A DNA stretch of 40,868 bases, taken from the NCBI GenBank assembly GCA_964371665.1, contig CAYJNP010000001.1, positions 37,862 to 78,729 on the forward strand, in the 5' to 3' direction. Position numbers and translations under genes: made by a program. Source of the DNA: an uncultured Eubacteriales bacterium (GTDB lineage Bacteria > Bacillota > Clostridia > Oscillospirales > Acutalibacteraceae). Position 1 is the stretch's first letter, and each line of letters begins with the position of its first letter. Positions 8,167 through 33,803 of the stretch are shown here, piece after piece. The notes below the pieces were generated by a model that saw only the letters and a list, made by a program, of their open reading frames with translations, ran no database searches and had not been told where the DNA came from.

Positions 8167-11100
8167 TTATTTGAAATTTTTTTCACTAGGAGTTTTTGCG
8201 ATACGTTTTGGAGTTGCTGATTCAATAACTGTTTGTTCAACATCATCAGCTTTTTCTGGATCAACTAAATCTTTATTATCTGCTTCGAAAGATTCTTCAT
8301 CTGGTTTACCTTCTTTAACTGCATCTGGTGCGAAGTTAACTCCAGCTTCACCTTCTGTTTCTTCTTTCATAATTTTACTATGATCCGCAGGAACTTCGGT
8401 TAAATCTTTTCCCATTTTTACAAGTTTATTTTCAAGTTTTTTAATTTTTTCTTGAATTTTATCTTGTTTAACCATATCAGATTCTTTTTGTTTTTTAACT
8501 TCTAAACTTCCAATTTTTTCTTTAATTTTTTGAACTTTTTTCTCATTCAATGCTTCTAAAATGAAATCGTCGATAACAACTTCTTCATTTAAAGCTTTTT
8601 TAATTAAAGTTAAATTAGTTTCATTAGCTTCAAAATCATTTGATTCAGAAAGGAATTCCATAATTAATTCATCAGAGAATCCTTCAATTAATGCTTGTTC
8701 AACATCATCAGCTTTTTCTGGATCGATTAAGTCTTCATTATCAGCTTCAAATGCTTTTTCTTGAGGTTCCCCTTCTTTAACAGCATCTGGTGCATCATTT
8801 GTTCCTAATTCTTCCATTTCTTTTAATAATGTATTAACATTATCATTAGCAACATCTACATATTTTTCTTGAATAGCATTGAATAATCTATTTGCATTTC
8901 CTAATACTTTTACATATTCTTCGAATAATTTATCTTCATTAGCTTCAGCTAAACTTAAAGCTACTTGTTCAGTTAATTTTTCTACTCTATCTTCAGAATG
9001 ATTGAAATAACCATAACCTAAAGCAACCGCTTCTTCAAAAGAACTATAAGGTTTTGCTTCATCATAATCAACTTTTGGAGCTGAATATGGAACTGCTTCA
9101 TCATATGGAACTGCTTCAGAAGTTTTAGATTCTTGTTCAATTTTTTCTACACCTTGATCACCAGCTGGTTCACATGGACATTCATTATCATCTTTATCAG
9201 TAGGAGTTTCACAAGCACACTCTTTACCAGTATCGTTGTTGATAATTTCTTCTCCAACTTCAGTAACTGATTCTTGTACAACTACTTCTTCTTTAGAATC
9301 TTCTTTTTCTAAATCTTCTACTTTATCTTCTAAATTTTCGATTTTTTCTTCTAATTTTTCAATATCATCTTCAACTGATTCTTTTATAGCGTTAATTTTT
9401 TCTAATTTACCAGTATTTTTTTCAGCTAATTTGATTTCATCTTCTTCATATTTTTTTAACTCTTTATCAGATTTCATATCTTTTTTAAGAGCTTTATATT
9501 CTTTTTTCAATTCTTTTAAATTAGAATTATGTTGTTTTGCTGCTTTATCACCTAATAAACCTTTAATTTTAGATTTTAAAGATTCCTCTAAAGTTTCATA
9601 GTCTTCACGGATAATTTCAACATTTTCTTTTGAAGGTGCATAACCACATTCTTCAAGAACTTTATATAATTCAAAATCAGAAACATTTTCGATAACAACT
9701 TGTTCTACGTCATCAGCTTTTTCTAAATCGTCAACAACTTCATCATTTTCTGCTTCAAAAGCTTTTTCAATAGCATCACCTAATTTAACAGCTTCTGGTG
9801 CATCATTTGTTCCTAATTCCTCTAATAATTTAACAAATAAATCATTACTTTCTTTCAATGAAACAAGATTTTTTTCAGAAGTTTTATAACCAGTGAATTC
9901 TAATAATTGATATAAATTATAATCGTTTATTAATGAAGCATTTATTAATTTATCTTTTATTTTTTGTGCTTCTGCTTCTTTTTTATTTTTTTTATCTAGT
10001 TTCTTTTGTGCTTTGGCGTTTTCTTTTTGTATCTTTGCAGCTCCAGAATATTTATCTTCTTGTTCTTTTTTGTAATTTTTTACAGATTCTGAATTTTTTG
10101 CATCGATTTTATTTTTATTATCTGATATTTTTTCATCTTGTATTCTTCTTTTTTCAGATTTTTTTAATTGTTTTACTTCTTTCCCGGCTTGTCTTTCATA
10201 TTTAGCTGTTTTTCTAGATACTCTACTGAAAGGATTAAATGCATAACCACCTAATGCTTCATTAATAGTCTCATATGTTTTTAAATTTTCTAAATTTTCT
10301 TTTGAAGGTTCATAACCGCATTCTTCAAGAATTTTATATAATTCAAAATCATTTAAAGATTCAATAACAACTTGTTCAACATCATCTGCTTTTTCTAAAT
10401 CATCAACAACTTCATCATTTTCTGCTTCAAATGCTTCTTCATCAGAAGGTCCTTCTTTAACTGCATCTGGTGCAAAGTTAACTCCAGCTTCTTCTTCGTT
10501 TAATAAATCTAAAATATTATCGAAAGATTCACCGATTGTATCTAACATATCATCAGAAACTACATCTAATTCTGGTGTTTTAGCATCTTCTAAATCTTCT
10601 AATTTATCTTCTAATTCTTCTTTATGATTTGGATCAAAGTCTGGATCAACAGATTTTTTATAGAAATCTTCTGGTACTAATCTATCTTCATTTAAATCTT
10701 CGAATTCTACAACTGTTTTATAATCTTCACGTAAAGTTTTAAGATTTTCTGAATCAGTATCGAAACCATATTTTTCTAATAATTTATATAATTCAAAATC
10801 AGAAAGATTTTCAATTAATACTTGTTCAACATCATCTGATTTATCTACTTTAACAACTTCATCATTAGTTGCTTCAAATGATTTATCATCTGGATTTCCT
10901 GGTTTTACAGATTCAGGAGCATGGTTAATTCCAGCGATTTCTCCAGTTGATTCTTTCATACTTTTAATTTCAGCATCAGCATATTCTTTACCTTTTAGAT
11001 GTTTTTTAGATTCAACATCATCTTCGTGTTTTTTTGCAAGTTTTAAGAATTTAGGATCTTTCATAGCTTTATCTGCTGCTTCAACATCTTTATCTTCTTT

Positions 11101-11520
11101 ATTTTCTATGATAACTTGTTCAACATCATCTGATTTATCTACTTTAACAACTTCATCATTATTTAAAGAAAAACTTTGCTCATCTGGATTTCCTGGTTTT
11201 ACAGCCTCGGGAGCATCATTTGTTCCTAATTCTTCATTTAATTTTTTTAATTTATTCATTTGATTTTCATCCTTTCCTTTTGATTCGCCAAAATAATTTA
11301 CATTATCTAAATCAATATCTATTTCTTTATTTCCAACAGCATTGAAAACATCATTATCTCCGTTTTCTTTTACTTCATCATTATCTTCATAATTGTTTTC
11401 TTCAGATTGTAATATTTCAGCTGCGGTTTCACTTTCTAAACTTTCAAGAATTTTATCTAATTCTTCTTGAGCTTTAGCTTCGTTTAAAAGAGCTTCTAAT
11501 TCTTTTACATTTTTACTCAT
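8167..11520 (-). CDS. 1117-aa highly acidic repeat protein (candidate internal head/scaffold-type polyprotein)
   Basis: Contains six copies of the module [GT]N[DHF]AP[ED][AS]VK.G...[ED]..F.....[ED].[VI]..[ED]K[AS]DDVEQ..IE. Four copies are followed by a SDFELYK.LEE.GY..S.EN helical unit. Also has a central Lys-rich segment and a CxC..CxC cluster. Preceded by a GAACAAT promoter and a split-SD leader, like the capsid, sheath and protease genes. Confidence 0.85.
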   Translation of the reverse strand: MSKNVKELEALLNEAKAQEELDKILESLESETAAEILQSEENNYEDNDEVKENGDNDVFNAVGNKEIDIDLDNVNYFGESKGKDENQMNKLKKLNEELGTNDAPEAVKPGNPDEQSFSLNNDEVVKVDKSDDVEQVIIENKEDKDVEAADKAMKDPKFLKLAKKHEDDVESKKHLKGKEYADAEIKSMKESTGEIAGINHAPESVKPGNPDDKSFEATNDEVVKVDKSDDVEQVLIENLSDFELYKLLEKYGFDTDSENLKTLREDYKTVVEFEDLNEDRLVPEDFYKKSVDPDFDPNHKEELEDKLEDLEDAKTPELDVVSDDMLDTIGESFDNILDLLNEEEAGVNFAPDAVKEGPSDEEAFEAENDEVVDDLEKADDVEQVVIESLNDFELYKILEECGYEPSKENLENLKTYETINEALGGYAFNPFSRVSRKTAKYERQAGKEVKQLKKSEKRRIQDEKISDNKNKIDAKNSESVKNYKKEQEDKYSGAAKIQKENAKAQKKLDKKNKKEAEAQKIKDKLINASLINDYNLYQLLEFTGYKTSEKNLVSLKESNDLFVKLLEELGTNDAPEAVKLGDAIEKAFEAENDEVVDDLEKADDVEQVVIENVSDFELYKVLEECGYAPSKENVEIIREDYETLEESLKSKIKGLLGDKAAKQHNSNLKELKKEYKALKKDMKSDKELKKYEEDEIKLAEKNTGKLEKINAIKESVEDDIEKLEEKIENLEDKVEDLEKEDSKEEVVVQESVTEVGEEIINNDTGKECACETPTDKDDNECPCEPAGDQGVEKIEQESKTSEAVPYDEAVPYSAPKVDYDEAKPYSSFEEAVALGYGYFNHSEDRVEKLTEQVALSLAEANEDKLFEEYVKVLGNANRLFNAIQEKYVDVANDNVNTLLKEMEELGTNDAPDAVKEGEPQEKAFEADNEDLIDPEKADDVEQALIEGFSDELIMEFLSESNDFEANETNLTLIKKALNEEVVIDDFILEALNEKKVQKIKEKIGSLEVKKQKESDMVKQDKIQEKIKKLENKLVKMGKDLTEVPADHSKIMKEETEGEAGVNFAPDAVKEGKPDEESFEADNKDLVDPEKADDVEQTVIESATPKRIAKTPSEKNFK
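8221..11232 (-). repeat. six dispersed in-frame coding repeats within CDS 8167..11520
   Basis: Copies at about 11101..11232, 10720..10938, 10270..10488, 9598..9822, 8596..8814 and 8221..8349 (aa 97-140, 195-267, 345-417, 567-641, 903-975, 1058-1100). Also visible at DNA level, e.g. cttgttcaacatcatctgatttatctactttaacaacttcatcatt near 10811 and 11114. Confidence 0.85.
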
Positions 11521-11589
11521 TTTATCACTAATTTTACAAAAATATTTATTTGGAATAAGCGAACCAAATTTGTAAAATATTATCTCCTT
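11518..11589 (-). promoter_or_regulatory. structured leader with split ribosome-binding site (acidic repeat gene)
   Basis: The minus strand reads AAGGAGAT (11589..11582), then AAT, then ATTTTACAAA (11578..11569), then a 28-nt loop containing TTTGG/CCAAA, then TTTGTAAAAT (11540..11531), then 10 nt, then ATG (11520). The 10-bp clamp is perfect. No SD lies next to the ATG. Confidence 0.55.
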
Positions 11590-11626
11590 TGTTGGAATTT
11601 TGTGCTTATTATTTTATATACTATTT

Positions 11627-11641
11627 TATAATAGATTGTTC
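11627..11641 (-). promoter_or_regulatory. phage promoter-like motif GAACAATCTATTATA
   Basis: A copy of the 15-nt motif, about 105 nt upstream of the ATG of 8167..11520. Confidence 0.55.
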
Positions 11642-18095: not shown

Positions 18096-18995
18096 TTATT
18101 TTCTTTTTTTCAATAAACTTGAATATTCTTTTTTATCATTTTGTAAAGATTCATTTAAAATATTATTTCTAACATTTTTTAAAAGATAATCTTCTAATTT
18201 TACTGTTTTTACTACGTTCCCGTTTTGTAATTTTACAGTACCGAAACTATTTGAATAAGTTTCCATTAATAATTTATCAGAATCATCATAGAAATATAAT
18301 TTACTAAAATGAACTAATTCACCTGAACCATTATCAATTAAATTTTCATAAATTAAACCTGAATTTTCTAAATTTTCTGTTTCTAATAAACCTTCATTTA
18401 AATTTAAAGATTCTGAAACAAAAGACTCATTTAAACAAGCTGATTCGTTAACACTTAAGTTTCCAATTTCTCTCATATAAGCTTTATCATGACTTGGATT
18501 CATAACCCAATCCCAACCAACAATTCTTAATCCTGGTTTTACAACAGTTCCTCCACCAAATCCTGGAGCAACATCACCTTGAGCTCTTAAACTAAATCCG
18601 ACTTGAACGCCTTGTTCTATTAATCCAGCCATACCTTTACCAACATCATTGTTTGCTGTTTCAAGATCACCAACTAATAAATCGCCTTCCCACCAAAGTT
18701 TTCTAATAATATGAGAGAATTTTAATGGATTAAGTTGACTTTGAACAGCCATATCTTTATTAGTAGGGTGTCCTGCTTCTCCACCAAAGTTCAATGTAGC
18801 CATACCTTTAGTAACAGTGAAATCTTTCATACCTTGTTCAAGGACGTTTTTAGGATAAGTTCTTCTATTTCTATTTTCTCTATTAGCCTCTTGAATTACA
18901 GCAGTAAATCTTATAGTTCCTAATGGAGTTTTTTTAAAATTTCTAATTTCAGCTACATGAGCTGACTCTAGAATTAAATATTTTCCTGTATTCAT
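18096..18995 (-). CDS. prohead core protease (T4 gp21 family)
   Basis: VIQEANRENRNRRTYPKNVLEQGMKDF aligns with T4 gp21 QAEVVNRNKRLYPKRILEKAVKDY. GGEAGHPT aligns with GELNHPP (catalytic His). KLWWEGDLLVGDLE aligns with DMWWKGNDVYGRARV. VGFSLRAQG aligns with PGVSSRGLG (catalytic Ser). I use the ATG at 18995 (MNTGKYL); the track's GTG at 19001 lies inside the leader spacer. Confidence 0.88.
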   Translation of the reverse strand: MNTGKYLILESAHVAEIRNFKKTPLGTIRFTAVIQEANRENRNRRTYPKNVLEQGMKDFTVTKGMATLNFGGEAGHPTNKDMAVQSQLNPLKFSHIIRKLWWEGDLLVGDLETANNDVGKGMAGLIEQGVQVGFSLRAQGDVAPGFGGGTVVKPGLRIVGWDWVMNPSHDKAYMREIGNLSVNESACLNESFVSESLNLNEGLLETENLENSGLIYENLIDNGSGELVHFSKLYFYDDSDKLLMETYSNSFGTVKLQNGNVVKTVKLEDYLLKNVRNNILNESLQNDKKEYSSLLKKRK

Positions 18996-19055
18996 GTACA
19001 CTATGCTTTACATTTCAAACGGCTAAGTCCTACCTATGACGTAAAGCGTCTCCTT
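18993..19055 (-). promoter_or_regulatory. structured leader with split ribosome-binding site (protease gene)
   Basis: The minus strand reads AAGGAGAC (19055..19048), GCTTTAC (19047..19041), a 29-nt loop, GTAAAGC (19011..19005), 9 nt (ATAGTGTAC), then ATG (18995). Confidence 0.55.
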
Positions 19056-19121: not shown

Positions 19122-19136
19122 TATAATTTATTGTTC
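19122..19136 (-). promoter_or_regulatory. phage promoter-like motif GAACAATAAATTATA (protease operon)
   Basis: A copy of the 15-nt motif. Divergent partner of 19238..19252. Confidence 0.55.
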
Positions 19137-19237: not shown

Positions 19238-19252
19238 GAACAATAGATTATA
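19238..19252 (+). promoter_or_regulatory. phage promoter-like motif GAACAATAGATTATA
   Basis: A copy of the 15-nt motif, 75 nt upstream of the ATG at 19327. Confidence 0.55.
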
Positions 19253-19326
19253 TAAATAGTATTGCAACACTAATTATGCTTTACATTTTATATGGTTTTA
19301 ATAAAGTGGAAAGGACGGATGTAATT

Positions 19327-19947
19327 ATGAAACACTTTTTTACAAACGGACTATTGAACATTAAAGAAGATAAAAATTCAAATTCCTCTGAAAAAACTTT
19401 TGAAAAGGCTATTAAAACAAATCTGTTAGAAAATGAAAATATTGTAGCAGAAGAACAAGTTGAAGAACCGCAAGAAATTGTGGAAGAACCTGTAGTGGAA
19501 GAAGAGCCTGTTGATGATGGATATGTCGAAGAAGAAATTCAAGATGATCTATCTTATATGGAACAACTACCCCCTAATTCAAAAGAAAATTCAACGGAAC
19601 ACGAAAAAATGAAATCTTTATTTATTTGTTCTGAAAATCTTTATGATTATTCTAAATTAGTAGAGCAGAATATTAAAAATATTGATAAAAGTACGATTGA
19701 TAGAGTGACTGTTGTAAAATTAGCTCAATTAGAAGACAAAATGAATCTTTATATTAATAAAATAAAAGATTTTGTTGCAGAAGTGTTTATTAGAGAAACA
19801 TATGAAAAAAATTTATATTTATTTTATACTCTAAGAAACGAATTTATTACTATAATAAAAATAATAAGAAAATTATTGAAATTAGAAACAATGGAACATG
19901 ATGATATTTCAAAGGATTCGCAAGAAGGATTAATTGAAATTAAATAA
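19327..19947 (+). CDS. acidic hypothetical protein upstream of the capsid gene (possible scaffold/internal head protein)
   Basis: I prefer the ATG at 19327 (MKHFFTNG) because the SD block GAAAGGACGG lies 8 nt upstream. The track start at 19276 has no SD. Contains an acidic tract EEQVEEPQEIVEEPVVEEEPVDDGYVEEEIQDD. Confidence 0.65.
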   Translation: MKHFFTNGLLNIKEDKNSNSSEKTFEKAIKTNLLENENIVAEEQVEEPQEIVEEPVVEEEPVDDGYVEEEIQDDLSYMEQLPPNSKENSTEHEKMKSLFICSENLYDYSKLVEQNIKNIDKSTIDRVTVVKLAQLEDKMNLYINKIKDFVAEVFIRETYEKNLYLFYTLRNEFITIIKIIRKLLKLETMEHDDISKDSQEGLIEIK

Positions 19948-19985: not shown

Positions 19986-20076
19986 AAGGAGAGACTTTAC
20001 ATATAGTTGGTTAGTTTACCATGGGAATAACAATTAGTTATCTATAAATATAAAAAGTAAAGTATATAAAATTATG
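19986..20076 (+). promoter_or_regulatory. structured leader with split ribosome-binding site (capsid gene)
   Basis: AAGGAGAG (19986-19993), ACTTTAC (19994-20000), 56 nt with further imperfect pairing, GTAAAGT (20057-20063), 10 nt (ATATAAAATT), then ATG (20074). Confidence 0.6.
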
Positions 20077-21894
20077 AACTTTAAAACAAAATATGATAGC
20101 ATTAATGAAATATTTTTAACTACAGACAGATTCTTACAAGAAAGTACAGGATATGGATTAGTTGGTGAAGATGCTACAATTAAAAGACTTTTCACAAATG
20201 AAGAAACGAGAGAATCAATCATTACTTCAATGGTGGAAGGTGTAAGTGCTGACGAAGAAGTACAATTAAGACAATTATTAGAAAACACTGCTAGAAGAAC
20301 TATCCAAGAGTCTGCTGGTGGAATCGCTGGTTTAGCTTCATTAAATATGCCAGTAATTAGAAAATTATGGTACAAAACTAGAGCTAAAGATGCTTTAAAA
20401 ACTGTTGTTGCAAATAGTCCAACTATGGCTGTTGCTTATACAAAACCATATTTATTCAGATATGTTGGTGGAGTAAAAGAAACTAAAGATTTACCTTATG
20501 GTGCTATGTATGCTAACGCTGCTTTAAATGCTGCTAATGGTTTAGATTTATATAGTGGTGATGGTTTAGATTTCCAATCAGTTACATCAATTAAACCTTT
20601 AACTGATGCTGCTGGTTTAAACGGAACAATGGTAACAATCGATTACTGTGAAGGTAGCGATATTGACGAAATCGACAGAGATTACTTTGTAGATAAAGTT
20701 GAAGTTTATGCTGCTGCTGTTAAAGTTGTTGATGGTAAAGTTGTAAATGCTGATGATACAGATGCTGTATTAGAAGAAAGCTATTACGTAGGTTTAGAAA
20801 AACCAATCGCTGATACAATTTATGGTACATTAATCGTTCCTTCAACTGCTACTGTTGATGCTGGTAAAGTTGCTGGTCAAATCGTTGTAAATGTTGCTAT
20901 GACTAAAGGTACTGCAGATATTTCTGTATTAAAAGGTGCTTTTGGTGCTTTAAAAGATGCTGTAAGTGGATCAGTTGTTGTTTATACAAGAGCTCATTTA
21001 TCAGCTGAAAAAAATGTTGCTTCATGGTCAGTTGCTACTGAAATTGCAAAACAAGAAATTACAATTGGAACTGGTACACATATCAATGCTCCAATGACTA
21101 TTGAATCTATTCAAGATTCAGAAGCATTATACAAAATTGACTTAACAGCAGAAATTACTGATGTTATGACTCAAGTATTTGCTCAAAGATTAGATGAAGA
21201 ATTAATTGACTTCATGATTAGAAAATTCGTAAACAGACCAACTAACGTTGAATTTAGAAATAACCCTGCTTATACTGGTGCTGCTGCTCATACATATACT
21301 TTTGATGTAGCTACAATGACTGGTTATACTGGTGGACCAAAAGCTTGGCGTGAAGAATTAAAACCTGTTATCGATGACGCTGCTATCGCTATTATGGAAG
21401 AAAGTAGATTCCAAGAAGGTACATTTGTATTAATTTGTCATCCAAAAACTGCTCAATTATTAAAAAATCCAGAATGGCAATATAAAGGTGGAAACGGTGG
21501 AAACGTTGATGGTACTTCTGTATCTTTCGATACTGCTGTATTTACTTCAGATTCATTCATTTATAAATTAATTAGTTCATTCAATTACCCTAAAGGTATG
21601 ATCGGATTATCATTTATCCCAGCTGGTGAAAAACAATTATCACAAGTTTATTACCCATATGCATTCACTATGAGTACAAGTGCTGGTTATAGAGATCCAA
21701 ATCAAGAAAACACTCCATCATTAGTTATGACTAAACGTCATGCAAAATGGGAATTCACTCCTACTTCTGCATTAATCGTTATCAAAAACTTAGATGGTAC
21801 TTCAAGATTCCATGCTGGTAACTTATGGTCTAACCAATTCTTAAGTAATGCTGATGTTCAAAACGGAGATTTAATTTATACACCAAAACCTTAA
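20074..21894 (+). CDS. probable major capsid protein
   Basis: Noticeably higher GC and strong codon bias (GCT/GGT/GTT/ACT) indicate very high expression. It lies divergent from the protease/scaffold operon, is preceded by an acidic protein gene, and is followed by a strong terminator. The 606-aa size fits large-phage capsid proteins. I recall no diagnostic motif, so the call is contextual. Confidence 0.65.
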   Translation: MNFKTKYDSINEIFLTTDRFLQESTGYGLVGEDATIKRLFTNEETRESIITSMVEGVSADEEVQLRQLLENTARRTIQESAGGIAGLASLNMPVIRKLWYKTRAKDALKTVVANSPTMAVAYTKPYLFRYVGGVKETKDLPYGAMYANAALNAANGLDLYSGDGLDFQSVTSIKPLTDAAGLNGTMVTIDYCEGSDIDEIDRDYFVDKVEVYAAAVKVVDGKVVNADDTDAVLEESYYVGLEKPIADTIYGTLIVPSTATVDAGKVAGQIVVNVAMTKGTADISVLKGAFGALKDAVSGSVVVYTRAHLSAEKNVASWSVATEIAKQEITIGTGTHINAPMTIESIQDSEALYKIDLTAEITDVMTQVFAQRLDEELIDFMIRKFVNRPTNVEFRNNPAYTGAAAHTYTFDVATMTGYTGGPKAWREELKPVIDDAAIAIMEESRFQEGTFVLICHPKTAQLLKNPEWQYKGGNGGNVDGTSVSFDTAVFTSDSFIYKLISSFNYPKGMIGLSFIPAGEKQLSQVYYPYAFTMSTSAGYRDPNQENTPSLVMTKRHAKWEFTPTSALIVIKNLDGTSRFHAGNLWSNQFLSNADVQNGDLIYTPKP

Positions 21895-22954: not shown

Positions 22955-22984
22955 TAATAACAAATAACGAAAGGACGGATGCAT

Positions 22985-23736: not shown

Positions 23737-23767
23737 GAAAATAGAACTTATTGTTCTATTTCTTTTA
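23737..23767. terminator. bidirectional terminator between convergent genes
   Basis: 9-bp stem aaatagaac (23739-23747) / gttctattt (23753-23761) with loop ttatt. A-run upstream and T-rich tract downstream. Overlaps the last codons of the ATPase gene. Confidence 0.65.
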
Positions 23768-26270
23768 TTTTTTCTATACTTTTTGAAGTCCAATTTACCA
23801 TTTTGCTTAATAAATAATATAATGGTGTTCCAAATATAAAGATAGCAACTAATAATAAATAGTTACCTGTATTTAGATATTTTAAACTGTCTGAAGCTGT
23901 TATAAAATCACCTTTAAATAAATTAACTAAAGAAGAATGATAATCGAAAATCATATCTTTTAAACTATCCAATCCATTTTTAGAGGAATAAAATGTAACT
24001 AGTACAATATCTGGATTGACTAATAAAATACCTATTCCTAAAATCATAGATATTATGACGACTATTTTTTTATAATTATTTAATGGTTTACATAAAATTA
24101 TTAATAATATATAACCGGAAACAGCCATAGATAATAATGCCATAGAATCTCTTACATATATATTTCCAGGATTAAAAGCATGTATCGAGAATATAATTGC
24201 AACTGGAAAGAATATTAATAAAGCAGAACTTATTGAATTCAATATTACTCCTTTGATAAATCTTCCGGATATTGGATGGGATGATTTTTGCAAAGATAAA
24301 AATAGAGAACTAAATCCTATAATTGCTGTTTCAAATATTGTAAAATTTTCAGTACTAAATGGATATTTTCCACCTAACATAATTATTGAATAAATTGACA
24401 TTAATATTACAAAAAATGTTTTCATTAAAAATAAAGTTGATGTTAATTGAATATTATTTATAACTCTTCTTCCTTCATTTACAACTTTAGGAAGATTTGA
24501 AAAATCAGAATCCATTAACACGACTTGAGATACTGCTTTGCTAGCCTCTGATCCAGAAGCCATTGCAATAGAACAATTTGCTGTTTTTAATGCTAAAATA
24601 TCATTTACACCATCACCAGTCATTGCTACATTTTTCTTATTGTCTTGTAAAGATTTTATTAAAATTGCTTTTTGTTCCGGTGAAACACGACCGAATACTG
24701 TAAATCTATTGGCTGCGTCTCTTGTTTCTTCTGCTGTTAAATGTTCTAAAGAAATGCATTTATCTGCATTATCTACACCGACTTGTTCGGCTATTCTTGA
24801 AACTGTAAGCGGATTATCACCAGAAATAATTTTAATATCTACATCGTTATCTTTGAACCATTTAATAGTATCTGCAGCCGTTTCTCTAATATTATCTTTG
24901 ATAACAAATAGAGCATATGGTATTAATTTATCATTAATTGATTTTGATTTATGATTTATTTTTTCATCATTTGCTGAAGTTGCTAAAACAACAACTCTAT
25001 AACCTTTGGAAGCATATGAATTCGCTAATTCTAAATGTTTAGGATAATGTTCTTTTTTTATTATAAATTCTGGAGCACCTAATATGAATGTTCCTCCAAC
25101 TTCAAAAGTTAATGCAGAATATTTTCTATCACTAGAGAAATCCAATTGATCTATAACTTTCATATCATTTCTTAATTTAAATCTTTCAGTTAATGCAACA
25201 TTTGTTTGATTATTTCCATTAATATAATTTAAATAATTCCCCATAATTTTTTCAACTAAATTTATATTAGCTTCTAAAATAACTGTATCAATAACTGTCA
25301 TTGTTCCATCGGTAATAGTTCCTGTTTTATCTAAACATAAAGTATCTATTCTTGCTAGAGACTCTATTGAATATAAATCTTTTACCATTGTATTGTTATT
25401 TGATAATCTAACAACACCTACAGTTAACGCTATTGTTGTTAGTAAAAACATACCAGTTGGAATTATTTGTGTCATTAAAGCACCTTGTGCTAATAAAGCT
25501 TCGTCCATATCAGTATCGCTTCCTAACATAGCCAGAAAACTGAATAATAATAGGGGAACTATTATAAAAGATAATCCTTTAATAATATTTGTTAAAGATG
25601 ATAATAAAACAGACTTTTTCTCTTTTATAGATTTTGTTTTATTTTGTAATTTATTGACAAAACAATCATTACCTATTTTATTTACAAAAGCATAAGCTTT
25701 TCCAGATACAACAAATGAACCACTTAACAATTCACTATCTTTTTCTTTTTTAATTAAATCTGATTCTCCAGTTAATAAAGACTCATTAACTTCTATTTGT
25801 CCAGATAATACTATACAATCGGCTGGTATTTGTTCACCAATATTCAATTCTATAACATCATCTAATACTAACATTTCTGATTTTATTTTATATTTATTAT
25901 CATTTCTTATAACTGTTGTACTTGGTGCGTTTATTAATTTTAAATTATCCAATGTTAATTTTGTTCTTATTTCTTGAATTATTGCAGTAGCAGTATTTAT
26001 TAAAACAGGTATTAAAAATAAATACATACTAAAAGGTGCACCGGCTATAATAAATAATAATATAGCGATCATAAAAAGAGAGTTGAAAAATGTAAATATA
26101 TTTTTATAAAAAATGTTCCATATTGTATTAGAAACTTCTACATTAGCTTTATTTATTAAACCAGCTTTTTCTCTTTCTATAACTTGTTCAACAGTTAAAC
26201 CTTTTTTAGAAACTTCATATCTTTCGATTTGAATAACTTCTAAAATTTTTTCGTTTAATAGTTTTTTCAT
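23748..26270 (-). CDS. P-type cation-transporting ATPase (E1-E2, HAD-IC type); substrate unknown
   Basis: Actuator motif LTGESD, phosphorylation motif CLDKTGTITDG, LGAPEF (KGAPE-like), hinge MTGDGVNDILALKTANCSIAM, and multiple hydrophobic helices at both ends. No N-terminal metal-binding domain or CPC motif. The M4 helix reads IIPTGMF instead of the PEGL of Ca-type pumps. Confidence 0.92.
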   Translation of the reverse strand: MKKLLNEKILEVIQIERYEVSKKGLTVEQVIEREKAGLINKANVEVSNTIWNIFYKNIFTFFNSLFMIAILLFIIAGAPFSMYLFLIPVLINTATAIIQEIRTKLTLDNLKLINAPSTTVIRNDNKYKIKSEMLVLDDVIELNIGEQIPADCIVLSGQIEVNESLLTGESDLIKKEKDSELLSGSFVVSGKAYAFVNKIGNDCFVNKLQNKTKSIKEKKSVLLSSLTNIIKGLSFIIVPLLLFSFLAMLGSDTDMDEALLAQGALMTQIIPTGMFLLTTIALTVGVVRLSNNNTMVKDLYSIESLARIDTLCLDKTGTITDGTMTVIDTVILEANINLVEKIMGNYLNYINGNNQTNVALTERFKLRNDMKVIDQLDFSSDRKYSALTFEVGGTFILGAPEFIIKKEHYPKHLELANSYASKGYRVVVLATSANDEKINHKSKSINDKLIPYALFVIKDNIRETAADTIKWFKDNDVDIKIISGDNPLTVSRIAEQVGVDNADKCISLEHLTAEETRDAANRFTVFGRVSPEQKAILIKSLQDNKKNVAMTGDGVNDILALKTANCSIAMASGSEASKAVSQVVLMDSDFSNLPKVVNEGRRVINNIQLTSTLFLMKTFFVILMSIYSIIMLGGKYPFSTENFTIFETAIIGFSSLFLSLQKSSHPISGRFIKGVILNSISSALLIFFPVAIIFSIHAFNPGNIYVRDSMALLSMAVSGYILLIILCKPLNNYKKIVVIISMILGIGILLVNPDIVLVTFYSSKNGLDSLKDMIFDYHSSLVNLFKGDFITASDSLKYLNTGNYLLLVAIFIFGTPLYYLLSKMVNWTSKSIEKIKEIEQ

Positions 26271-31929: not shown

Positions 31930-31944
31930 GAACAATAAATTATA
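31930..31944 (+). promoter_or_regulatory. phage promoter-like motif GAACAATAAATTATA (sheath/tube operon)
   Basis: A copy of the 15-nt motif. Divergent partner of 31873..31887. Confidence 0.55.
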
Positions 31945-31998: not shown

Positions 31999-32102
31999 AA
32001 GGAGAGTCTTTACGATAGATGGATTGCTTTTATCCATATCTGTGACATAAAATGTTTCTATAATATAATGAAAATTATATTAAGTAAAGAATATAAAATA
32101 TG
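31999..32102 (+). promoter_or_regulatory. structured leader with split ribosome-binding site (sheath gene)
   Basis: AAGGAGAG (31999-32006), TCTTTAC (32007-32013), 70 nt containing the inner hairpin GATGGAT/ATCCAT, GTAAAGA (32084-32090), 9 nt (ATATAAAAT), then ATG (32100). Confidence 0.6.
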
Positions 32103-33803
32103 GCAAATACTATAATAAATTATCCTAGAGTTTCTGTAACTTATAATGCTAGTTTAACTCAATTACCTACAGCTGCTGAAAATAATGCTACAATTTTGTT
32201 TGCACCTTTTATATCTAATAAAGGACCTGCAAATAAACCAACATATATATCTTCTTATAGTGACTTTGTTTCTTTGTACGGAACTTTGGATTATAATAAA
32301 AATGGACAACAAGTTTTGAATATAGGAAATTGGTTAAATTCTTTTGGTCAAATTTTAGCATATAGAATTGTTGATTTCGATTCAATAAAACTTACAGGTG
32401 GGATTAATGATATTGATTTAACTAATGCTTTATCTGATACAGATTTAAAAAGTTTTTTAAATTTTTATTCATTAGTTCTTGAAAATGGTTCGACGGTATA
32501 TTTTGTTAATGGTGTTGAATTAGATAATGATTTAACTTCATTTGTTGATACTTATACATTAAGTGTCGAATCAGATGGCTCATTAAAAATAGGAGAAGAA
32601 AATTTAACTAACAACAGTCGTAATGTTTCTATAAATGATCCTTCTTTATATGCATTATATGGAACTGATATTTCTGAAACAGCACTTGCTATTAAATCGA
32701 TTAAATTTATATATCGTTCTAAAAATATTGGTTCAGATTATCAAAATTTTAAATTAAGTTTTGAAGGTTCAAGTATCGAAAAAACATTTAATATTGTTTT
32801 AAGTAACAATAATAAAGTTATTCAAACAATAAGAAATAGAACTTTAAGTAATTATAAAAGTGCATTAATAAAAGATGAAGATCCTTTTTCATATATAGAT
32901 ATGATTTATATAAATGGAGGATTTGATATAACTTCAACTATAGGATATTCAAATTATATTCAATTAATTCAAAATAAAATAGATGGTGATAATATTTCTT
33001 CTGCTTTTGATGCAATAGCTGATCCATTGGTTTATCCTTGTGATGTTGTTTTAGATGCTGGTTTCTCTAGTGATGTAAAACAAGCTATTGTTAATAAAAT
33101 TGAAAATGTTCGTTATGATGTATTTTCGTTTTTAGATTATTTTGAAAATAAAAATAATAAAATGATCCAATTAACGAGTGCACCTACGGTAATTAAAGGT
33201 GATAATTTTGCAATTTATCAACAATATGGGACAACTGAAGACATTTATTCTACAGTTTCTCAAGGTGAAATTAAAGTTACACCTACATATTTCTTAGCAA
33301 ATCTTATTCCTTTTAATGATAGACAATATGGATACGGTAAAACTCCTGTTGGTTTAAGATACGGTGTATTAAATGATGTTATTTCTATAAATCAAATTCC
33401 TAATAGTGATGAAAAAGAAGAATGGTTCCAAGCCGGAATTAATTATATTGAAAAAGATTCTCGTTCAACACAATTCTTTACTCAAAGAACTATGTTTGAA
33501 GTTCAAGATGGTTTTGTGTCAGCATTACAATTTATTAACAACTCTCGTATTGCAAAAAGAATAGGTAGAGATGTTACAAATATTGCTAGATGGGAAATCG
33601 GTGAAGTAAACGATAATACAACAGTGACAAATCTAAGAGATAAAATAAATAGATATTTGGATACATGGGTTCAATTAAGAGTATTATCTTCTAAAGAAGT
33701 AATAGTTGAAATAGATCCATTTGATAATGTAATTTTAAATGTTACATTAAATATATTATTTAACGGTACAATTGAATACATTCCAATTGTAATCAATTTA
33801 TAA
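32100..33803 (+). CDS. tail sheath protein
   Basis: The N-terminus has the usual sheath layout (YPRVSVTYNAS...ATILFAPFISNKGPANKPTYISSYSDFVSLYG). The C-terminal block is GINYIEKDSRSTQFFTQRTM. It is followed by a tube-like gene. Confidence 0.75.
   Translation: MANTIINYPRVSVTYNASLTQLPTAAENNATILFAPFISNKGPANKPTYISSYSDFVSLYGTLDYNKNGQQVLNIGNWLNSFGQILAYRIVDFDSIKLTGGINDIDLTNALSDTDLKSFLNFYSLVLENGSTVYFVNGVELDNDLTSFVDTYTLSVESDGSLKIGEENLTNNSRNVSINDPSLYALYGTDISETALAIKSIKFIYRSKNIGSDYQNFKLSFEGSSIEKTFNIVLSNNNKVIQTIRNRTLSNYKSALIKDEDPFSYIDMIYINGGFDITSTIGYSNYIQLIQNKIDGDNISSAFDAIADPLVYPCDVVLDAGFSSDVKQAIVNKIENVRYDVFSFLDYFENKNNKMIQLTSAPTVIKGDNFAIYQQYGTTEDIYSTVSQGEIKVTPTYFLANLIPFNDRQYGYGKTPVGLRYGVLNDVISINQIPNSDEKEEWFQAGINYIEKDSRSTQFFTQRTMFEVQDGFVSALQFINNSRIAKRIGRDVTNIARWEIGEVNDNTTVTNLRDKINRYLDTWVQLRVLSSKEVIVEIDPFDNVILNVTLNILFNGTIEYIPIVINL

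Follow-up and report, generated by a model that had tools for sequence, protein, structure and literature searches.

Four late genes of an uncultivated AR9-like jumbo phage, those for the capsid, the tail sheath, the prohead protease and a 1117-aa acidic repeat protein, seem on balance, as read from their leader sequences, to be translated from split ribosome-binding sites. In each leader an insert of 43–84 nt lies between a Shine-Dalgarno (SD) sequence and the ATG, and the insert is closed at its base by a short helix, the clamp. A scan of the window (the whole 40,868-nt stretch of DNA analyzed) that was blind to stem sequence returned exactly four SD/stem-loop/ATG layouts, all with one stem core. 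An earlier note on this DNA had described the capsid leader and claimed that the same layout precedes three further genes, and these were located at the sheath, protease and acidic protein genes, with the coordinates given below. The phage resembles AR9 and PBS1 in having a homologous capsid, a multisubunit RNA polymerase and late promoters of the form A(-11)ACA-N6-T-A/G. Its capsid protein is 24–32% identical to those of AR9, PBS1, S6 and phiR1-37, and the window encodes an RNA polymerase beta-like protein (phrog_3015).

The capsid leader contains the following elements; SD duplex energies here and below were computed against an assumed Firmicute-type 16S tail, which may not be that of the host.

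19986..19993, + strand: distal SD AAGGAGAG, with GGAG at 19988-91; duplex of −8.3 kcal/mol
19994..20000, + strand: 5′ arm of the clamp, ACTTTAC, which pairs perfectly with 20057-63
20001..20056, + strand: interior of the insert, 56 nt, with two weak hairpins
20057..20063, + strand: 3′ arm of the clamp, GTAAAGT
20064..20076, + strand: 10-nt A/U spacer ATATAAAATT and the ATG (20074) of the capsid gene, 20074-21894

The SD, both arms and the ATG lie exactly where the earlier note had placed them. Its statement that the 20 nt before the ATG hold no SD also held, as the region from −22 to −3 forms a duplex of just −1.3 kcal/mol with the 16S-tail sequence. The gene product was identified as the major head protein (phrog_20655, E = 6.5e-74) and its N-terminus aligns with 15 homologues. 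Because an in-frame TAG is present at 20035, the reading frame has no upstream extension, and this stop codon together with the N-terminal alignment excludes an upstream or non-AUG start and gene-60-style bypassing. No start codon was found 5–12 nt downstream of the distal SD at any of the four leaders. Additional pairing within the capsid loop, as proposed in the earlier note, is possible (12 of 13 pairs, four of them G:U), but it is energetically poor, at −3.3 kcal/mol where the best fold with a closed clamp reaches −10.0 kcal/mol, and the loop is no more structured than shuffled loops (z = −0.13). The loop also holds an 8-codon uORF at 20022; translational coupling to uORFs was rejected because none of the small loop ORFs has an SD and their spacing from the main start is not consistent. 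Likewise, an AACA-N6-TA match at 20029, which occurs in the capsid loop and in none of the other three, was dismissed as a promoter (PWM 2.2, compared with at least 19.9 for real promoters).

The other three leaders have the same order of elements.

31999..32006, + strand: distal SD AAGGAGAG of the sheath gene; duplex of −9.8 kcal/mol, compared with −1.8 kcal/mol for local pairing
32007..32090, + strand: stem-loop insert of the sheath leader, 84 nt, with arms TCTTTAC (32007-13) and GTAAAGA (32084-90)
32091..32102, + strand: 9-nt spacer ATATAAAAT and the ATG (32100) of the sheath gene, 32100-33803
19048..19055, − strand: distal SD AAGGAGAC of the protease gene; duplex of −9.5 kcal/mol, compared with −2.1 kcal/mol for local pairing
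19005..19047, − strand: stem-loop insert of the protease leader, 43 nt, with arms GCTTTAC (19047-41) and GTAAAGC (19011-05)
18993..19004, − strand: 9-nt spacer ATAGTGTAC and the ATG (18995) of the protease gene, 18096-18995
11583..11590, − strand: distal SD AAAGGAGA of the acidic protein gene; duplex of −9.2 kcal/mol, compared with −5.3 kcal/mol for local pairing
11531..11578, − strand: stem-loop insert of the acidic protein leader, 48 nt, with arms ATTTTAC (11578-72) and GTAAAAT (11537-31)
11518..11530, − strand: 10-nt spacer TAGTGATAAA and the ATG (11520) of the acidic protein gene, 8167-11520

The sheath gene was assigned to tail sheath families phrog_19666 and phrog_23, and the protease contains a Peptidase_S77 domain (E = 3.9e-15) and has an alternative in-frame GTG start at 19001; no Pfam or PHROG family was found for the acidic repeat protein. 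For the capsid, sheath, protease and acidic protein genes, respectively, the linker from GGAG to the stem is 2, 2, 2 and 5 nt (in the acidic leader TAAT follows the SD, leaving ATAAT between GGAG and the stem), and the spacer from stem to AUG is 10, 9, 9 and 10 nt, as the 9–10 nt of the earlier note had implied. Loops measure 29 nt (protease), 34 nt (acidic protein, where the clamp can be extended to 9 bp), 56 nt (capsid) and 70 nt (sheath, with three hairpins) rather than spanning 28 to 70 nt. With the clamp closed, the gap between GGAG and ATG would shrink from 82, 95, 54 and 63 nt to 12, 11, 11 and 15 nt; the approach of the SD to the AUG on closing thus stands, but the resulting distance is not the ∼10 nt originally proposed, and 11–15 nt (plus the width of the helix) is longer than the roughly 5–9 nt at other genes of this phage.

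The four distal SD duplexes (−8.3 to −9.8 kcal/mol) are of normal strength for the capsid, sheath and protease genes, whereas start-proximal pairing to the anti-SD at these three genes (−1.3, −1.8 and −2.1 kcal/mol) is the weakest among 32 genes, for which the median is −10.3 kcal/mol. The acidic protein gene is below the median in strength (−5.3 kcal/mol) and lacks a local SD only in part, with a weak partial SD, AGUGAU, near its ATG. As a separate observation, the capsid and sheath copies have nearly identical flanks of 15–19 nt.

Comparison of the four clamps gave the consensus N-Y-UUUAC/GUAAA-R-N, with 7–9 bp and the UUUAC/GUAAA core common to all four. The earlier note had assigned a CTTTAC/GTAAAG core to every member, which is correct for three clamps but not for the fourth (AUUUUAC/GUAAAAU). 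Every stem cell is paired (28 of 28), and two of the seven pairs have changed on both sides with pairing preserved: the outermost, which is A:U, U:A or G:C and whose covariation had already been claimed, and a second, newly found pair, which is U:A in the acidic clamp and C:G in the other three. Only 7 of 500 shuffles matched both the complete pairing and the two covarying pairs, the sample being four paralogous leaders. The inner 5 bp are invariant, although the loops are unrelated in length and sequence, and simple bridging of SD and AUG would not need such constancy; the invariant core hints at sequence-specific recognition. The family was searched for with a descriptor scan, as MAFFT failed to align the 3′ arms across loops of 29–70 nt. 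The same scan of 520 kb of control DNA gave three matches, all unrelated, and no copy of the clamp was found outside late-gene leaders in the 41-kb window. None of the Rfam 15 covariance models reached its gathering score in the window and, at E values up to 10, none covered any of the four SD-to-AUG elements, which ruled out a known small ribozyme or riboswitch.

In relatives of this phage the corresponding sites are uninterrupted. The capsid gene has a contiguous site, AAGGAG(A)-N7-12-ATG, in all ten relatives examined (AR9, LPJP1, PB50, SA1 and six metagenomic sequences), that of AR9 being AAAAGGAG-N9-ATG. Canonical sites also precede the protease orthologues examined (three of three; L004, L042 and L044) and the one sheath orthologue examined (L044). 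The distal SD motif of the capsid leader is the same as the contiguous SD of these relatives, and removal of the insert in silico yields AAGGAGAG|ATATAAAATTATG, which can be compared with AAAAGGAGAGAAATTAAATTATG of LPJP1. Because the relatives are canonical and deletion of the hairpin recreates their site, the hairpin is, on these comparisons, an insertion specific to this lineage that interrupts an otherwise normal ribosome-binding site. A blastn search of 50,697 phage records with the region as query gave no match, no related locus was found in IMG/VR by way of the capsid protein, and exact motif scans of IMG/VR, JGI metagenomes and GTDB genomes returned coding or chance matches only, none at a ribosome-binding site. 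No close relative of the phage was thus present in the collections searched, and covariation was therefore taken from paralogues.

We favor, with moderate confidence, a split site of the kind found at T4 genes 25 and 38, here as a family of four genes with much larger inserts. A stem-loop of 43–84 nt would have been inserted into an ordinary AAGGAGA-N10-AUG site, directly after the SD. The 30S subunit would bind the distal SD; the clamp of 7–9 bp at the base of the insert would close, probably co-transcriptionally, before the coding region exists; the insert would loop out from the ribosome platform; and the AUG, 9–10 nt past the clamp, would come to lie 11–15 nt from the SD, where initiation could occur. 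Initiation from the distal SD, clamp formation in vivo, ribosomal tolerance of such large inserts and translational control by the fold are inferred. The adjacent AAGGAGA of the relatives, the restoration of their layout on removal of the hairpin and the local SDs of three of the genes, the weakest of the 32, all strengthen the split-site interpretation put forward in the earlier note. The architecture and the four-gene family that it described were borne out, but its account of the fourth clamp's core, of the loop sizes and of the inner pairing was not, and its description of the products as the most abundant late proteins may not apply to the protease and the acidic protein. An intrinsic terminator or RNase III site was rejected, as the stems are short and AU-rich and cutting would detach the SD. 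We know of no convincing complement to the clamp arms in 16S rRNA.

Late promoters of AR9, which are recognized by its non-virion RNA polymerase, have the consensus A(-11)ACA-N6-T-A/G(+1) (PMC5449584). The window contains 13 strong matches of this type, with the extended consensus GAACAATNNATTATA, and as in AR9 strong matches lie upstream of the leaders; this likeness provides context only.

19238..19252, + strand: late promoter GAACAATAGATTATA; PWM 24.9, predicted +1 at 19250
31930..31944, + strand: late promoter of the sheath operon; PWM 22.8, predicted +1 at 31942
19122..19136, − strand: late promoter of the protease operon; PWM 25.0, predicted +1 at 19124
11627..11641, − strand: late promoter of the acidic protein gene; PWM 22.1, predicted +1 at 11629

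Measured from the predicted transcription starts, GGAG lies at about +43, +60 and +72 in three leaders. The candidates for a promoter of the capsid gene itself score 6.0 and 2.2, and transcription from the promoter at 19238..19252 probably covers ORF 19327-19947 and reads through into the capsid gene, whose leader is probably intercistronic.

Inverted repeats are common in an AT-rich genome, and 5-bp pairs occur in the window at 21 places for TTTAC/GTAAA (17.6 expected) and 42 for CTTTA/TAAAG (18.6 expected), while about 7 of 33 genes would be expected to have some 7-bp stem that ends near the start. However, once an SD is required as well, the layout is expected at 0.10 genes in shuffled upstream regions and was observed at four; exact CTTTAC..GTAAAG pairs number three, compared with ∼0.13 expected; and the four leaders share core and geometry, the genes concerned being the three whose local SDs are weakest and a fourth that is below the median. 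The arrangement is not random, and a chance origin is effectively refuted. The inserts could instead be selfish or neutral palindromic insertions (MITE-like elements or expanded hairpins) that have no function and are tolerated through the re-closed site, in keeping with their absence from every relative examined, their 7-bp terminal inverted repeats with a common core, the lack of excess structure in three of the four interiors and the almost identical flanks of the capsid and sheath copies. We consider this unlikely: the interiors share neither sequence nor length and cannot be aligned, target-site duplications were not seen, no copies occur beyond the late leaders in the 41 kb or in the viral, metagenome and genome collections, and the compensatory changes in the repeats indicate selection on pairing. 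Still less probable, in our estimation, is the alternative raised in the earlier note that the distal SD is a 5′ stabilizer of the STAB-SD type, at which a parked 30S subunit would block 5′-to-3′ decay while initiation at the AUG would be SD-independent. The Bacillus thuringiensis cry3A STAB-SD is likewise an SD-like element in a long leader, far from the start codon, and its binding to the 16S 3′ end does not direct initiation (PMC4113751); the late-gene leaders here are long with a strong SD far from the AUG, and relatives of the phage infect Firmicutes, where RNase J1 decay operates. Yet the highly expressed cry3A gene has a separate ribosome-binding site, and the stabilizer fits poorly here because a second SD is lacking at three of the four genes. 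In addition, the motif corresponds in position to the translational SD of the orthologous genes, it would lie ∼43–72 nt from the predicted 5′ end in three leaders, and neither the fixed 2-nt and 9–10-nt distances nor a base-paired clamp would be predicted for a stabilizer.

Folding of the leaders showed that the clamp is weak (duplex energies of −2.7 to −6.7 kcal/mol) and thermodynamically marginal in three of the four. The minimum-energy structures of the protease and sheath leaders contain it, as do those of the capsid and acidic leaders when coding sequence is left out. The protease clamp has a probability of 0.99–1.0 in every context folded, whereas the capsid and acidic clamps fall to ∼0 in equilibrium folds with 20–40 nt of coding sequence, and the sheath clamp does not exceed 0.5 in any context and is lowest in the shorter ones. 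The sheath insert as a whole folds at −18.6 kcal/mol (z = −2.45 compared with loop shuffles); the loop interiors of the other three are no more structured than shuffled sequence. In folds that include coding sequence, base pairing takes up most of the AUG in the capsid and sheath leaders and part of it in that of the acidic protein. One clamp arm in each of these three leaders has an alternative partner in the first codons, and such pairing would hide the AUG; in the capsid leader it is the 3′ arm, with ACUUUA in codons 2-3 (20078-20083). The protease leader has no such partner.

These alternative pairings bear on a different reading, in which the clamp is mainly an operator for a phage or host RNA-binding protein, an RNase or a small RNA that co-regulates the late structural genes, and in which the approach of SD and AUG is secondary or is itself what is switched. 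The unchanging 5-bp core, identical despite wholly different loops, lends some support to the regulator or RNase site suggested in the earlier note. A fifth copy of the hairpin is also present in another late leader, that of ORF 19327-19947, where it lies 5′ of a canonical SD and outside any SD-AUG gap.

19278..19307, + strand: degenerate hairpin GCUUUAC ... AUAAAGU, 6 bp including one G:U

The leader of this ORF further contains a 14-nt repeat complementary to the 3′-arm region of the protease leader. On the other hand, the analysis turned up no candidate factor, and two stem positions are free to vary provided that they pair, which points to the helix rather than its sequence. The alternative pairings differ in kind among the leaders, with none in the protease leader, and short AU-rich complementarities are common in a genome of 24% GC. 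We give the operator reading a low probability, and similarly long odds to its extension, that the shared clamp is the operator of a translational switch coordinating synthesis of head and tail structural proteins. In the ON state of such a switch the clamp would be closed, with the SD beside a free AUG; in the OFF state an arm would pair instead with the first codons or with a different leader, hiding the AUG and stranding the SD 54–95 nt away. The choice could be set by co-transcriptional folding, by temperature or by a phage factor recognizing the UUUAC/GUAAA helix. If so, the switch would constitute a multi-gene, structure-gated ribosome-binding-site regulon, for which we know of no counterpart described in phages.

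Split translation-initiation regions at T4 genes 25 and 38 were reportedly described by Nivinskas et al. in 1999 and by Malys and Nivinskas in 2009, and to our knowledge split SD-AUG sites have so far been shown only for these two genes. Mutation and DMS probing showed that a hairpin reduces the SD-AUG spacing from 22 to 5 nt at gene 38 and from 27 to 11 nt at gene 25 (PMC3014915). As proposed for the leaders described here, an over-distant SD is brought closer by an intervening hairpin. In both cases the genes belong to the late morphogenesis set of a large myovirus, and only a sub-lineage has the arrangement, ordinary sites being present in more distant relatives. The T4 inserts are about 16–17 nt, however, compared with 43–84 nt here, where the sheath insert is a three-hairpin junction; here, unlike in T4, one clamp sequence is common to four genes, the residual spacing is 11–15 nt, and the phage is AR9/PBS1-like, with relatives on Gram-positive hosts, and known from sequence alone. 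Another split ribosome-binding site, at E. coli thrS, is said to come from the work of Sacerdot et al. At thrS the ribosome accommodates a long hairpin (PMC3936740), so that, as proposed here, a large hairpin in the ribosome-binding region is tolerated rather than unfolded. The thrS hairpin differs in that it sets off an adjacent SD and AUG from an upstream single-stranded binding segment and is also the operator for ThrRS, whereas the hairpin here parts the SD itself from the AUG.

If the split-site interpretation is correct, a giant phage very unlike T4 arrived at this solution independently, split sites can form a family that serves several major structural genes together, and the ribosome may tolerate multi-hairpin inserts of 43–84 nt between SD and AUG. 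Gene finders and ribosome-binding-site calculators with an upstream search range of only 20 nt would report no site for the capsid and sheath genes. The four leaders and the natural hairpin-less versions of the relatives are ready constructs for studying the limits of 30S loop-out.

ORF 19276-19947 was rejected as the fourth gene meant in the earlier note, as it has no upstream SD and its degenerate hairpin lies 5′ of its own SD; the fourth member of the family is the gene at 8167-11520. The real start of ORF 19276-19947 is probably the ATG at 19327, which has its own SD.

We scanned both strands of the window for any perfect 7-bp stem, of free sequence, with GGAG or GAGG at most 9 nt from its 5′ side, a loop of 4–119 nt, and a 3′ arm ending 6–13 nt ahead of the first codon of an ORF that spans 80 aa or more. 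Exactly four sites were returned.

Split leaders: start, strand and gene; Shine-Dalgarno (SD) sequence with linker; 5′ arm of the stem (clamp); loop; 3′ arm; spacer to the ATG.
ATG 20074, + strand, capsid: AAGGAGAG; ACTTTAC; 56 nt; GTAAAGT; ATATAAAATT
ATG 32100, + strand, tail sheath: AAGGAGAG; TCTTTAC; 70 nt; GTAAAGA; ATATAAAAT
ATG 18995, − strand, prohead protease: AAGGAGAC; GCTTTAC; 29 nt; GTAAAGC; ATAGTGTAC
ATG 11520, − strand, 1117-aa acidic repeat protein: AAAGGAGATAAT; ATTTTAC; 34 nt; GTAAAAT; TAGTGATAAA

On re-reading, the capsid layout (19986–20076) proved an exact match to that given in the earlier note. Since the scan returned ATG 11520, the fourth gene of that note is the one for the 1117-aa protein; the proposed four-gene family was recovered, except that the acidic clamp departs from CTTTAC/GTAAAG (second pair C:G to U:A, changed on both sides). 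Shuffling the 150-nt upstream regions of 33 genes gave an expectation of 7.3 genes carrying a 7-bp stem close to their start, and of 0.10 genes, versus four observed, when an SD was also required. The identical scan of 520 kb, drawn from relatives and from unrelated contigs, returned three scattered matches with unrelated stems. The four-gene layout is not due to chance. When the clamps were aligned with loops trimmed, 28 of 28 stem cells were paired, with both-side changes in 2 of 7 pairs; 7 of 500 column shuffles did as well and the signal was lost on sliding the partner columns, upholding the covariation described earlier for the outermost pair.

Anti-SD pairing was calculated over the −22 to −3 region of 32 genes against an assumed Firmicute-type 16S tail, from which the host's own may differ. 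On that assumption the median local value was −10.3 kcal/mol, and the three weakest local SDs were those of protease (−2.1), sheath (−1.8) and capsid (−1.3 kcal/mol, the weakest of all, in agreement with the reported lack of an SD before this ATG); the acidic gene gave −5.3 kcal/mol. The distal SDs of the four split leaders were of normal strength (−8.3 to −9.8 kcal/mol). The capsid ATG at 20074 begins the gene for a major head protein of 606 aa (phrog_20655, E = 6.5e-74). Aligned with 15 homologues, its N-terminus corresponds residue by residue, and the reading frame cannot extend further upstream because of an in-frame TAG at 20035.

Capsid identity was 24–32% to AR9, PBS1, Staphylococcus phage S6-like phages, Listeria phage LPJP1 and Yersinia phage phiR1-37; among 5.8 billion proteins the closest capsid homologue had 42% identity, and this search found no close relative of the phage. 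We read the capsid leaders of ten relatives, comprising metagenomic contigs (L001, L004, L007, L042, L044, L045) and cultured phages (AR9, LPJP1, PB50, SA1), together with the protease leaders of L004, L042 and L044 and the sheath leader of L044 alone. Every one had a contiguous SD-ATG site (10/10 capsid, 3/3 protease, 1/1 sheath), for example:

L001, capsid: TAAAGGAGACACGAATT-ATG
L004, capsid: AAAAAGGAGACAAATT-ATG
L004, protease: AAAGGAGACCAATT-ATG
LPJP1, capsid: AAAAGGAGAGAAATTAAATT-ATG

Without its stem-loop, the window capsid leader reads AAGGAGAG|ATATAAAATT-ATG, the LPJP1 layout. No CTTTAC...GTAAAG hairpin was found in ∼110 kb of those relatives. Because their sites are contiguous and hairpin-free, the stem-loops are lineage-specific insertions into canonical ribosome-binding sites, and the distal AAGGAGA is the positional counterpart of the orthologues' translational SD. 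Scans of the IMG/VR, JGI metagenome and GTDB genome collections showed the exact motif at no ribosome-binding site.

Folding, which the earlier note had proposed as a check, gave minimum-energy structures that contain the clamp for each of the four leaders alone, the sheath leader being folded from 31990; when the sheath fold began instead at the predicted transcription start, a competing structure lower by 0.9 kcal/mol took over. As duplexes the clamps are weak (−2.7 to −6.7 kcal/mol). Only the protease clamp was robust (p = 0.99–1.0 in every context folded), the sheath clamp having a probability of at most 0.5 in any context, lowest in shorter ones. Adding 20–40 nt of coding sequence displaced the capsid and acidic clamps: the capsid 3′ arm GUAAAGU pairs with ACUUUA in codons 2–3 (20057–20083, +), and the acidic 5′ arm AUUUUAC with GUAAAA at +5 and +14 (11578–11501, −). 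At equilibrium, the AUG of the capsid and sheath leaders is then largely paired, and that of the acidic leader partly so. Because the arm-to-codon pairings take the place of the clamp and hide the AUG, the leaders may act as an on/off switch. Folding during transcription would favour the clamp, since both its arms are synthesised ahead of the coding region. Interior structure exceeded that of shuffled loops in the sheath alone (z = −2.45), and the inner pairing suggested earlier for the capsid loop can form but is poor (−3.3 vs −10.0 kcal/mol).

The best-supported reading is that the split leaders are split ribosome-binding sites of the T4 gene 25/38 type, in which the 30S subunit would bind the distal SD, the insert would loop out and the AUG would be brought 11–15 nt from GGAG. 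In T4, spacing falls from 22 to 5 nt (gene 38) and from 27 to 11 nt (gene 25), as confirmed by mutation and probing (PMC3014915), and the split thrS site contains a long hairpin that the ribosome can accommodate (PMC3936740). The window phage differs from the T4 cases in lineage, in the involvement of several genes with one common clamp, and in inserts three to five times longer. The interpretation first put forward is partly supported: the architecture and the split-site inference are now stronger than they were then, but in the folding models the clamp's thermodynamics are marginal in three of four leaders. The alternative then offered, that the distal SD is a STAB-SD (an SD-like 5′ mRNA stabiliser), fits poorly: cry3A has a ribosome-binding site of its own (PMC4113751), whereas the capsid, sheath and protease genes have no second SD, and the fixed distances of 2 nt and 9–10 nt are not expected of a stabiliser. 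A mobile palindrome as the source of the inserts also fits poorly, given unalignable interiors, no target-site duplications and no copies elsewhere; Rfam families gave no match.

Simple bridging leaves two features unexplained: the UUUAC/GUAAA core is constant while the loops it encloses are entirely unlike, and a fifth, degenerate hairpin copy (GCUUUAC 19278–84 with AUAAAGU 19301–07, +) occurs 5′ of an ordinary SD in the ORF 19327–19947 leader. These leave room for sequence-specific recognition of the clamp, or for a switch. A 14-nt direct repeat, TATGCTTTACATTT (19002–19015 and 19274–19287), makes the leader RNA of this ORF complementary to the 3′-arm region of the divergent protease leader.

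Other features accompany the split leaders. In the protease leader (−), an in-frame GTG (18999–19001) lies two codons 5′ of the ATG and 3 nt past the clamp; it may be an alternative start, because clamp closure would leave it 5 nt from GGAGAC. The capsid and sheath inserts (+) hold 8-codon ORFs (20022–20048, MGITISYL; 32019–32045, MDCFYPYL), both finishing Tyr-Leu-stop, and the acidic insert (−) a TTG ORF (11567–11517), its TGA sharing bases with the main ATG in the sequence ATGA; all lack an SD of their own. The acidic protein (8167–11520, −) has ∼6 copies of a ∼60-aa module, …GTNDAPEAVKPG…NDEVV…ADDVEQV.IE..SDFELYK.LE…, and no Pfam or PHROG match.

Thirteen matches to GAACAATNNATTATA in the window had a late-promoter position weight matrix score of at least 19.9, the next best scoring 13.

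Promoter matches
− strand: 5967, 11640, 13096, 14161, 16575, 19135, 22929, 28163, 29796, 31886
+ strand: 19239, 22941, 31931
Predicted +1 of strong promoters
31942, + strand: sheath
19124, − strand: protease
11629, − strand: acidic protein

GAACAATNNATTATA extends the consensus of AR9 late promoters, A(−11)ACA-N6-T-A/G(+1), which the non-virion RNA polymerase recognises (PMC5449584). These matches suggest that the uncultivated phage, like AR9, uses a template-strand-reading polymerase and possibly has uracil-containing DNA. Genes for a phage RNA polymerase beta-like protein and a family B DNA polymerase also lie in the window. The capsid gene lacks a strong promoter of its own (candidates score 6.0 and 2.2) and is probably read through from 19239, in which case its "leader" would be an intercistronic junction, as in T4 gene 26-25. 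The remaining nine promoters precede short leaders with ordinary SDs.

A 13-nt block, GAAAGGACGGATG, identical at ∼19309–19321 and 22969–22981 (+), precedes two late genes. Its ATG is probably not a real start in either; the first copy reads ATG-TAA at 19319, and the second gene's likely start is 22985. An 840-aa P-type cation ATPase (23748–26270, −; E1-E2_ATPase E = 7.9e-40), unusual for a phage, is also encoded in L001 and L007. A nicotinate/nicotinamide phosphoribosyltransferase gene (265–1572, −; NAPRTase E = 2.3e-70) points to phage-encoded NAD salvage.
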